From a virus (taxonomy: Duplodnaviria > Heunggongvirae > Uroviricota > Caudoviricetes), in IMG/VR virus record IMGVR_UViG_2534681940_000021: a stretch of DNA of 10,935 nucleotides, one strand, 5' to 3'. Shown piece by piece: positions 1 through 3,000 of this stretch; the stretch's first letter is position 1, and each line of letters starts with the position of its first letter. The position numbers were made by a program.

Positions 1-3000
1 GTTACCGATTCCAATTCAAGTTCGTTCAGACGATGACGAAGTGTGTGTGCTGCAATCTCCTGGATTGAAGGAGGTAAATCTTTAAATTCCATCGTCAACC
101 TCATTAGTCGGAGTTTCTTGCTAACCAGCGACGCGCGCCAGCTTCAGTTTTAAACGTTTTGCTTCTGGTATACGTCATCGCGGTAAACGTGCCGTCCAGG
201 TTGGGGAATACTCCGTATACCAGAGATTCGTTGTTGCCAAGATTGAGCGTATCCATGTTGACCTCATTTCCCCTTAACGCCGGGTAGCGGAACTGTTTGC
301 TGAGAACACCGTGCGGTGTCTTGATGGGTGGTAATTTAGTTTTCTCATGAATGTTGGTCAAGTATTTTTAATGAGAAAACTCAATATTTAATGCAAAATA
401 AAGCCAATACATTGAAATGTAAGGCTTTAAAATTTGTGAAGGGGGTTACTGATGTTTGTTACGTTTGCGAGCTTCTAGTAGCTCGGTGAATAGGCGATTA
501 AAATTCTCAACGCGGGCACGGAGTTCGCTGATTTGTGCTTGCTGCTCTGATTTTGGAAGTGCGCGATACAATCGCAACATCTCCAACTCATCTTCCGATA
601 AGTCTAAGGCGCTGTTGAGTGCAACTGGTGGATCTGGTGTTTTATCCTCGTCACCAAACAGTATCCAAGTTGGTGAACATTGCAATACCTCAGCCAGGCG
701 ATGCAAATTTTGCCCGCGCGGGGCTGTATGGTCGCTTTCCCATAGTGAAATTGATGAGCCAGATACGCCAGCGGCTTTGCTTAAATCGTTTTGACTTAAA
801 CCAACCTGTTTGCGTCTTTCTCTAATTCGTTGACCTAAAGTTTTCTCGTTCATATTTAGATATCTTAATAACCCTTGACTTGAGATTCCTTGAGTGATTG
901 CTATTGAGAAAACTCAACTTTGGAGAGGTGATGTTTAAATCAGACGTAATTAATTTTTATGGGACGAAAGCCAAAGTAGCGAAAGCTGCTGGTGTTGATC
1001 CATCTGCTGTTTCTCAATGGGGGGAACTGGTTCCTGAAGGTCGCGCGATGCGCCTGCAAGAGGCATCCGGCGGGGAACTTCAGTACGACCCCAAAGTTTA
1101 TGACGAATATCGTAAGGCAAAGCGGGCGGGGCGGTTGAACAATGAAAATCACCCCTGAACAGGTTTGTGAGGCTCTGGATGCCTGGGTATGTCGACCAGG
1201 AATGACACAGGAGCAGGCGACGATATTAATCACGGAAGCATTCTGGGCTCTGAAAGAACGCCCGAACATCGATGTTCAACGCGTCACGTTTAATGATGGC
1301 GAGGTTGATCAACGGGCGCTGGGCGTTAACCGGGTGAAGATATTCGAACGCTGGAAAGCTATCGACACCAGGGATAAGCGGGAAAAATTCACGGCGCTGA
1401 TTCCGGCAATTATGGAGGCTATCCGAATTAGTGATTTCAGGTTGTATCGTGAGATCAGTGATGGAAAAAGCATTACGTACATGATCGCCGGATTAAACAA
1501 AGAATATGGCGATGTGGTGGAGTCCGGGCTGCTTTTTGCGGATCCAGCTGTTGTGGAACGTGAGACTGACGAGCTTATAGAAAAAGCTATTGCTTTCAAG
1601 CATGCGTATCGTCAGCAATATCAATATTACTTTGCAGATAAACAAATATCTGCCAGGGGTTCGTATGAGTATCGATGCACTACGATGGGCTAAAAAGGTG
1701 AAAACCGGCAGTTCATCCAGTAAGTCTGTATTGACCTGGCTTGCTGATATGTGCGGTGCCGATTTGTGTGCATACCCGTCTGTATCTGCACTGGCAGAAG
1801 TAACGGAACTGAACAAAAAGACTGTGCAGGACAGCTTACGACACCTGATGGAGATTGGGTTAATTGTTGATACCGGTGAGAGAAAAGGCAGAACAAAGCA
1901 AATTGTGGTGTACCGACTTATCGGTGTAGAAGAAAGTGTTGCCGAGCCTGAATACACCCAAAAACGGGTGTCTTTAAAGGTGGGTAAAATTGGTGCTGTT
2001 AATAAAAACAGTACCGAAAATGGTTATGTTTCAGCACAAAAGAGCCCCAAAAACGGAACTCTTTGTTGCATGGAAAATAACCAAAGACACCCAAATTTTC
2101 CATCAAAGACACCCAAAAACGGATCACGGAACCCAAAGGAACCCAAAGATCTAAACCCCACACATAACGCACGCGAGAGTGCTCCGACCAGTGAGCAGGA
2201 AGTTTTGTCGTTACAGGCAGCCCCCCATGTATTCCTGGATGGCCTGAGCGAACCCATCGGAAAATTCCCGATGAGCGATAGCTGGTATCCGTCACGGGAT
2301 TTTCGACGACGGGCTGCGTTGTGGGGGATGGCTTTGCCGGAGACAGAATTTACACCTGCTGAACTTACCGCATTCCGGGACTACTGGGCAGCGGAGGGGA
2401 AAGTGTTTACGCAGATTCAGTGGGAGCAGAAATTCGCCCGTCACGTAAATCACGTCAGGGCGCAGGTTAAACCAGTCAGCAAAGGGGTAAACCATGCAGC
2501 AGCACCAGGTGGCACCGCATCACGGGCAGTTCAGGAAATTCGGGCAGCACGTGAGCAGTGGGAACGTGAAAACGGATTTATCAGCGACGGAAACGGCCTG
2601 GAAGCTGTGGGAACTCATGGGGGAGGTTTATTCGAACCGCTGGACCCAGAAGAACGGGGCCGCACCTTCGAAGCTCTGGATTGCACAGATTGGCGCGATG
2701 ACTGAGCAGCAAATCCGGCAGGTCTGCCGCCAGTGCATGGACCGCTGCCGGGCGGGTGAAACATGGCCTCCGGACCTGGCTGAGTTTGTGGCGCTGATTT
2801 CGGAAAGCGGGGCCAATCCATTTGGCCTGACGGTGGATGCTGTGATGGAGGAGTATCGCCGCTGGCGTAATGAGTCCTGGCGATATAACGGAAGCGACAA
2901 ATATCCGTGGCCTCAGCCTGTGCTGTATCACATTTGCCTCGAGATGCGTTCAAAGGGGATTGAACGCCAGATGACCGAAGGGGAATTAAAACGGCTTGCA

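Follow-up and report, generated by a model that had tools for sequence, protein, structure and literature searches.

A stretch of viral DNA of 10,935 nucleotides (nt), IMG/VR record IMGVR_UViG_2534681940_000021 (referred to here as the window), carries an O-like replication-initiator gene followed by a P-like helicase-loader gene, and the two open reading frames (ORFs) share 212 nt (2494 to 2705), P being read in the +1 frame with respect to O. A single DNA segment supplies, in different frames, the final 70 codons of the initiator and the opening 70 codons of P. From the comparison of sequences, we consider it quite likely that this is a genuine dual-coding region maintained by selection, composed of an initiator (1665 to 2705) and a loader that starts from its own Shine-Dalgarno (SD) sequence and ATG at 2494. 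The first-pass annotation, made from the sequence alone, had reported the overlap, and its ORF coordinates were confirmed; it offered two readings, a genuine overlapping-gene arrangement or the relic of a lost stop or frameshift. Conservation of the start and SD, reciprocal suppression of synonymous change, homology of the overlapped P segment with the lambda P N-terminal domain and presence in many enterobacterial genera argue for the former. The relic is not supported, given the recurrence of the initiator tail and of its stop position in all related loci and the selection acting on the tail itself. The main features are the following.

1665 to 2705, + strand: O-like replication-initiator gene, 346 amino acids (aa) from ATG 1665 (the RefSeq start, same coordinates)
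2494 to 3159, + strand: P-like helicase-loader gene, 221 aa; PF06992 (Phage_lambda_P) at 59.6 bits, gathering cut-off 26
2703 to 2705, + strand: initiator stop TGA, 70 codons inside the P gene
2494 to 2592, + strand: overlap part A, where the P leader (residues 1 to 33, of which 1 to 24 are predicted to be disordered) lies over the O tail helix; O frame more constrained
2593 to 2705, + strand: overlap part B, where the conserved P residues 34 to 70 coincide with the O tail's disordered acidic end; P frame dominant

Conservation of the overlap

To place the window among its relatives we collected 35 loci (one genome per species), 7 annotated phage or Escherichia coli loci and 6 contigs with more distant homologues. 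The initiator ORF ended 134 to 227 nt inside P in all 27 non-redundant loci, with P identities down to about 20%, and its stop lay 8 to 32 codons upstream of the WPPDLAEF anchor of P in every locus. Overlaps of this length were found in Escherichia, Salmonella, Citrobacter, Enterobacter, Klebsiella, Kluyvera, Pluralibacter, Phytobacter, Pectobacterium, Serratia, Rouxiella, Samsonia and Buttiauxella, as well as in metagenomic relatives. The alignment of homologues, which the first-pass annotation had proposed as a check, showed no case, among the loci examined in this P subfamily, of an initiator whose ORF stops short of the P start. One Erwinia locus (L036) considered as a non-overlapping homologue was dropped, since it is what remains of a prophage, adjacent to a phosphotransferase system gene. 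Protein searches with the tail alone and with 150 aa brought up little other than partial E. coli entries and left the family no broader.

The raw count of zero O-frame stops in the overlap is tautological, since the stop defines the overlap, and weight comes only from a recoding simulation and from the stop density elsewhere. A simulation that kept the amino acids of P fixed and resampled synonymous codons left the O frame uninterrupted through the overlap in only about 3% of trials per locus (the median across 21 non-redundant loci), so the overlap exceeds what chance would give. Elsewhere in P, stops in the O frame number about 5 per 100 codons.

Selection in both reading frames

Synonymous constraint, another check put forward in the first-pass annotation, was analyzed in both frames using pairwise Nei-Gojobori proportions of synonymous (pS) and nonsynonymous (pN) differences in codon alignments of 16 to 21 non-redundant loci, with bootstrapping over codons. 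The values of pS (95% bootstrap intervals in parentheses) were as follows.

O frame, O-only region, 2253 to 2490: 0.75 (0.70 to 0.80)
O frame, overlap part A, 2496 to 2592: 0.62 (0.54 to 0.70)
O frame, overlap part B, 2595 to 2702: 0.24 (0.16 to 0.33)
P frame, P-only region, 2707 to 3156: 0.76 (0.73 to 0.79)
P frame, overlap part B, 2593 to 2702: 0.67 (0.60 to 0.73)
P frame, overlap part A, 2494 to 2592: 0.53 (0.45 to 0.60)

Synonymous divergence falls from 0.75 to 0.24 in the O frame and from 0.76 to 0.53 in the P frame, with disjoint bootstrap intervals in both comparisons (O-only versus part B and P-only versus part A, respectively). The O-frame values fall abruptly, and they do so at about 2590, the beginning of conserved P sequence, and not at 2617 or 2698. 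The P-frame minimum (0.43 to 0.44) is found at 2530 to 2548, over the O tail helix. In part B (2593 to 2702) the P-frame pN/pS ratio (omega) was 0.36 to 0.40, similar to that of the P-only region (0.32 to 0.38), and the O-frame ratio was about 1.3 (2595 to 2702). A recoding null, in which one frame was synonymously recoded and the chance identity of the other frame was measured, gave the following excesses.

O identity over the null: 2.15-fold in part A, 1.27-fold in part B, 1.11- to 1.12-fold in single-coding controls
P identity over the null: 1.59-fold in part A, 2.59-fold in part B, 1.10- to 1.11-fold in single-coding controls

Because of the drops in pS and the excess of identity over the recoding null, both frames are, by these measures, constrained across the whole overlap, with dominance switching at about 2590.

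A different view would be that the O tail is a translated but functionless passenger of a long-lost stop, with only P under selection in the overlap. The O-frame pN/pS ratio of about 1.3 in part B and the mostly disordered AlphaFold2 (AF2) model of the tail count in its favor. We regard it as quite improbable: the O frame is open over 134 to 227 nt in all loci, with a chance of about 0.03 per locus; P-frame pS is depressed over the tail helix; O identity exceeds the null in both parts, 2.15- and 1.27-fold versus 1.11-fold in controls, with several tail residues invariant; and the tail is retained on unrelated initiator bodies. By the same comparisons, the O tail is maintained by selection.

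The loader and its predicted structure

The product of the 221-codon ORF matched the PHROG family phrog_109, "P-like helicase loader," with an E value of 1.2e-62, and no NCBIfam model matched it. A pairwise BLASTP comparison with lambda P aligned only residues 86 to 201, and both BLASTP and a small profile started to align at residues 70 to 86, approximately; a deeper profile was needed to recover collinearity at the N terminus. With a profile of the long P forms, positions 1 to 214 aligned to residues 1 to 223 of lambda P (PDB 8v9t, chain V; E value of 1.8e-38). An AF2 model built from a 33-sequence alignment had a mean predicted local distance difference test (pLDDT) score of 85, with residues 1 to 24 disordered, helices at residues 25 to 46, 48 to 54 and 60 to 67 (pLDDT of 91 to 97) and a score of 95 to 97 for residues 31 to 60. 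These first three helices of the predicted P N-terminal domain span residues 25 to 67 and reach into part B. The best PDB matches of the model were the lambda P chains of the DnaB-lambda P complex: Foldseek gave E values of 2e-6 to 9e-6, a probability of 1.0 and template modeling (TM) scores of 0.40 to 0.50 for chains Y, Z and V of 9oa1, and the C-terminal domain matched 8v9s with a TM score of 0.91 and a root mean square deviation of 1.0. From this homology, the protein would be expected to bind and open the host DnaB.

An exhaustive HMMER search retrieved many P relatives at 17 to 40% identity, with matches starting at query residues 20 to 37. The family alignment has the motif LWxxMxExYGxxW...W...WPPxLxEF, in which W39, G55 and W62 are invariant and M42 nearly so. 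Even the distant relatives (17 to 26% identity) share LWxxMxExYGxxW, which corresponds to P residues 39 to 50 in the window, and in relatives this motif always has 25 to 60 variable residues before it.

Start site of the loader gene

The following features bear on the choice of the P start.

2482 to 2487, + strand: SD AAGGGG of P, 6 nt before the ATG, within the O codons Lys-Gly-Val
2494 to 2496, + strand: P start codon, spanning the O codons CAT|GCA
2617 to 2619, + strand: ATG of Met42, the start in 180- to 181-aa annotations (Salmonella, Klebsiella, Citrobacter); internal conserved residue
2698 to 2700, + strand: ATG of the P start called for E. coli by RefSeq and the Prokaryotic Genome Annotation Pipeline (PGAP), 153 aa, with the 8-nt overlap ATGACTGA

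The comparison across loci places the conserved P start at 2494 and not at 2698 or 2617. The pairing energy between SD and anti-SD at 2494 (-7.9 kcal/mol) was the strongest of the in-frame candidates, versus -4.2 at 2617 and -3.1 at 2698, both at background level; values of -7 kcal/mol or below were reached by only 6.7% of window positions. The good SD and start described in the first-pass annotation were conserved in 27 loci. In all 27, the P start was located at offset 1 of the O frame, and nearly all had GGAGG, GAGG or GGGG at a distance of 5 to 9 nt before the ATG. The O residues encoded at this point vary (H, N, Y, D, C or S followed by A, V, E or G), with codons that are always NAT|G or NGT|G; elsewhere in these genes, NAY codons end in T 49% of the time. 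In two loci (L013 and L021), the equivalent of 2494 is the only start codon upstream of Met42.

The RefSeq call would have P initiated at 2698 by termination-reinitiation at ATGACTGA, with the upstream ORF being an untranslated by-product of O. It has in its favor the PGAP annotation in E. coli and the junction itself, since ATG-N-TGA is a classic coupling arrangement and the lambda O and P genes overlap by 4 nt. We give this reading a very small probability, since the ATG is absent at this position in six loci (L028, L030, L031, L033, L035 and L037), there is no SD, and the O-frame synonymous divergence collapses about 100 nt upstream. This start would also delete the three high-confidence helices of the predicted N-terminal domain and the most conserved motif of the family. 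The first-pass annotation had named a start at 2698 as an observation that would count against the overlap, and although it is indeed the RefSeq call, it is not conserved.

A start at 2617 would give a protein of 180 aa and reduce the overlap to 89 nt. Forms of 180 to 181 aa have been annotated, and the ATG is found in almost all loci. However, Met42 is a nearly invariant residue that relatives precede with 25 to 60 others, and it is therefore an internal residue of the family; one locus (L026) has Leu there and no start codon. The conserved W39/LW lies just upstream in the P frame, the SD is weak, P is constrained in 2496 to 2592 (1.59-fold versus 1.1-fold in controls), and the far ATG and its SD would be conserved for no other visible reason. 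We hold initiation at 2617 to be highly unlikely.

A combination of both, in which only the E. coli clade would make a truncated isoform from 2698 (or 2617) beside the full-length loader from 2494, is rather unlikely. The ATGACTGA junction is present in the group from Escherichia to Klebsiella and nested isoforms are frequent in phages, but the internal start has no SD and the family at large does not retain the junction.

The initiator and its tail

The initiator is composed of an N-terminal helix-turn-helix (HTH), a low-complexity linker, a DnaT-like single-stranded DNA-binding domain and a C-terminal tail of about 79 aa. Its ORF is also open from TTG 1590 and ends at TGA 2703 to 2705. The DnaT domain (PF17948) scored 59.9 bits (cut-off 25) over residues 201 to 267, and the HTH_36 match reached 20.9 bits, under the Pfam cut-off of 25. 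The initiator matched phrog_1032, replication initiation protein (6.7e-90). The NCBIfam DnaT equivalog scored 91.9 versus a cut-off of 201, and the initiator is therefore not DnaT itself. The label "O-like" given in the first-pass annotation stands as far as a replication initiator is concerned, but not as homology to lambda O: the Pfam search of the window protein gave no match to PF04492 (Phage_rep_O), the architecture is HTH plus DnaT-like, and PHROGs described as "replication initiation O-like" match weakly, over the N-terminal HTH.

2265 to 2465, + strand: DnaT-like domain of the initiator (residues 201 to 267), PF17948, AF2 pLDDT of 85 to 93
2466 to 2702, + strand: initiator C-terminal tail (residues 268 to 346), with a helix, a Gly-rich disordered stretch and an acidic motif

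As there is no O stop before 2703, the tail is translated whenever O is. It contains the helix RAVQEIRAAREQWERE at nt 2523 to 2570, followed by the acidic motif GGxLFEPLDxEERG...LDxxDWxDD; from Glu324 (GAA, nt 2634) on it contains EPLDPEERGRTFEALDCTDWRDD. Conserved in the tail alignment are SRAVQxI, W, EPxDxEE and D..D, with E128, P129, D131, E133, E134 and D146 invariant. In the AF2 model of the last 150 residues of the initiator, the helix had a pLDDT of about 60, and the rest, at 36 to 48, was disordered. The two proteins are complementary along the DNA, with the O tail helix overlying the disordered P leader (nt 2494 to 2565) and the P helices (2566 to 2694) overlying the disordered acidic tail.

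The same tail sits on at least five initiator architectures, always joined to this P gene.

HTH plus DnaT: the window
DUF1376 plus DnaT: L006
DUF1376 without DnaT: L026
Phage_rep_O N-terminal domain, PF04492: L023
lambda-O C-terminal domain, 50% identical to lambda O 159 to 268: L024

The presence of the tail tracks P rather than the body of the initiator.

Comparison with known systems

The lambda O/P pair has the same gene order and functions, its P is a full-length homologue of the loader described here, and the initiator ends in an acidic, Trp-containing stretch in both. Lambda has its iterons inside O, and the window has iteron-like repeats, a putative origin, inside the initiator gene. 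However, the lambda genes overlap by 4 nt (ATGA) versus 212 nt in the window, and lambda O belongs to Phage_rep_O, unlike the HTH plus DnaT-like initiator, whose tail has about 50 extra residues without a lambda O counterpart. A weak natural parallel is the read-through product O', in which extra C-terminal residues come from 34 codons of the 5' end of P in the other frame (Yates et al. 1977, cited in PMC3640518). O' requires suppression of the UGA stop, was seen in vitro and has no established function (PMC3640518). Unlike O', the extension in the window is constitutive, twice as long and conserved.

In a Klebsiella oxytoca prophage (L050), a DnaT-like initiator is followed by a 260-aa P, to whose residues 27 to 259 the window P aligns with residues 22 to 221. 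Here, the overlap is of 4 nt (GTGA) and the initiator has a short tail ending in SPEAWEEFL, which shows the non-overlapping state. Because the P relatives of lambda and K. oxytoca overlap by only 4 nt, the long overlap is, from these comparisons, the derived state on the evolutionary time scale. The Rac-type ydaU-ydaV pair and a Yokenella locus (L052), with a DnaT-like initiator and a DnaC/IstB-type loader, have the DnaT-like domain and cI-, cro- and YdaT-like upstream genes, as in the window. Their initiator, however, ends in ...IPPGFRG like E. coli DnaT and lacks the acidic tail, and a 2-nt gap separates the genes.

Classical out-of-frame overlaps such as phiX174 A/B/K and D/E or lambda Rz/Rz1 also yield two proteins from one stretch, and where one frame encodes structure the other is disordered or tolerant. 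Those are embedded genes with unrelated or lysis functions, whereas the window has a terminal overlap between two genes of one pathway, and the overlapping initiator and loader probably interact.

A dual-coding model and its weak points

In the model that we favor, the dual-coding one, the initiator would be translated from ATG 1665 to TGA 2705 and the loader independently from its own SD and ATG at 2494 within it. Constraint is partitioned along the segment, with the predicted tail helix (about 2523 to 2570) over the variable P leader and the P helices (beginning at about 2566 to 2590) over the disordered tail, which there keeps only a short acidic motif. The loader segment is probably the older frame, because P residues 22 to 70 are homologous to sequence inside non-overlapping P genes, and the initiator ORF would later have been extended into P, giving rise to the distal tail (overprinting).

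By analogy and co-occurrence, we infer that origin-binding initiators of diverse types may use the tail to recruit this loader, and that tail and P would be inherited as one cassette. The grounds for a role as connector are that the tail goes with P, that it is missing where the loader is of the DnaC type, and that the initiators with a P-family loader as partner all share an acidic ending that contains Trp. The ends compared were LDCTDWRDD in the window (EALDCTDWRDD, 2676 to 2702), LDLTNTDWIYGVDL in lambda O and SPEAWEEFL in K. oxytoca; the extreme C terminus of lambda O, KLDLTNTDWIYGVDL (L049, 1041 to 1086), resembles the end of the window tail. This shared acidic end may be a candidate loader-docking motif. 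In classical lambda genetics, the C-terminal part of O is reportedly the one that works with P (work attributed to Furth and colleagues, 1978). With the tail encoded inside the loader gene, the partners would stay together while recombination swaps the upstream origin-binding part. For the loader side, domain I of lambda P has been proposed to engage the O-ori complex (PMC12661323). A more daring extension, which we put forward tentatively and hold to be somewhat doubtful, is that the 212 nt encode both faces of one protein-protein interface, making the partners inseparable by recombination and leaving them to coevolve base by base. If so, origin-binding modules of the HTH plus DnaT, DUF1376 and lambda-O types would plug onto a fixed cassette of tail plus loader.

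Several observations weigh against this model. RefSeq and DDBJ annotators put the P start at 2698 or 2737. P residues 1 to 24 are predicted to be disordered and evolve fast (P-frame omega of 0.82 to 0.91 in part A), and therefore structure alone cannot fix the N terminus of P. RNA folding around the P start gave nothing beyond shuffled sequences (z = 0.09), so that no structure coupling the two translations was seen there, and structure-mediated coupling was dropped as an idea. The selection statistics are pairwise proportions from related sequences, with single-coding regions as controls. The step in which the tail binds the loader is drawn only from analogy and co-occurrence, and the likeness of the tail end to lambda O and K. 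oxytoca is a short motif that could be due to chance.

Annotation and significance

The P start is given at 2698 (153 aa) by RefSeq/PGAP in E. coli and at a still later ATG by DDBJ, and some GenBank entries have the 221 aa. If the start is at 2494, this is a systematic and widespread annotation error, noted at 2698 and 2617 of the window, at 1399 to 1860 in L004 and L005 and in the proteins P0020, P0023, P0024 and P0031. The annotated loader would then lack 68 codons in E. coli RefSeq records and about 41 in Salmonella, Klebsiella and Citrobacter, and these short annotations remove conserved helices of the N-terminal domain. In one metagenomic contig (L044, 1681 to 2727), a 348-aa initiator ORF was left uncalled, apparently due to its 227-nt overlap with P. 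Long overlaps can thus make whole genes vanish from catalogues, and chimeric profiles such as phrog_15931 also result.

The profile phrog_15931 (482 positions) matches both the initiator (163 to 347) and P (281 to 482). Any +1 indel in the dual-coding region fuses O and P without meeting a stop; the database proteins concerned are P0084, P0108, P0131 and P0151. The profile seems to have been built from O-P fusion ORFs made by deletions or frameshifts in the dual-coding region. This profile and several database proteins, being O-P fusions, could also be taken to indicate a programmed +1 frameshift that makes a fused product. We rejected them as a sign of such a mechanism because the junctions are heterogeneous and include deletions; the fusions inspected were singletons or came from low-quality assemblies. 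P, moreover, has its own conserved SD and ATG. Programmed frameshifting, for which slippery sites were not systematically searched, deserves hardly any credence.

The gene families involved, a P-type loader and an initiator with a DnaT domain, are known, and the long ORF is already in GenBank. What we did not find described is this variant, a conserved overlap of about 150 to 230 nt with reciprocal constraint and a portable tail-loader cassette; the literature searched held no description of it, an absence that incomplete coverage makes weak evidence. The accepted view of lambdoid replication is not overturned by the overlap. As a deeply conserved long terminal overlap between genes of one pathway in a double-stranded DNA phage, it provides a test case for overlap detection and for ideas on overprinting. 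If the tail is the loader-docking element, mosaic phages would keep initiator-loader specificity while exchanging origin specificity, which bears on the old lambda question of the linked specificity of O and P.

Genomic context and other features of the window

The window corresponds to the early-right part of an E. coli prophage of the lambdoid type and is 97 to 99.8% identical to PPompW-type prophages of Shiga toxin-producing and other E. coli. This prophage type was present in 1,262 of 5,426 complete E. coli genomes (about a quarter). Its genes are, in order, a cI/DicA-like repressor, a Cro-like and a YdaT-like gene, the initiator, the P-like loader and a DUF1627 gene. The YdaT-like gene (1142 to 1693) overlaps the start of the initiator by 29 nt (1665 to 1693), in agreement with the RefSeq annotation.

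1950 to 2147, strand not assigned: iteron-like direct repeats inside the initiator gene, ACCCAAAAACGG three times, CAAAGACACCCAAA three times and GGAACCCAAA twice, plus inverted repeats

These repeats sit in the low-complexity linker of the initiator and probably represent the putative replication origin of the prophage, by analogy with ori-lambda inside O. Many BLAST matches to other prophages (Rac-SA53, a phage deposited as Actinobacillus phage and E. coli strains) start at 2145 to 2152, in the linker just 5' of the DnaT-like domain, marking a point of mosaic recombination ahead of the DnaT-tail-P block.

Downstream, Rfam matches above the gathering score were isrK (4310 to 4383), C4 antisense RNA (4409 to 4492), just upstream of an ORF at 4545 to 5093, sok (5196 to 5370), an antitoxin RNA accompanied by a hok-type ORF ending at 5520, and STnc100 (10100 to 10274). 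A second out-of-frame overlap, of 116 nt, involves a RusA-like ORF (8142 to 8609) of 155 aa, longer than expected of a RusA protein, and a Cys-rich, possibly antiterminator-like ORF of 224 aa (8494 to 9168); this overlap (8494 to 8609) may reflect start sites wrongly set in the mechanical ORF list. On the minus strand, 5623 to 6304 contains ORFs of 105 and 123 aa that overlap by 8 nt and resemble, by appearance, a HigB/RelE-type toxin and an HTH antitoxin.

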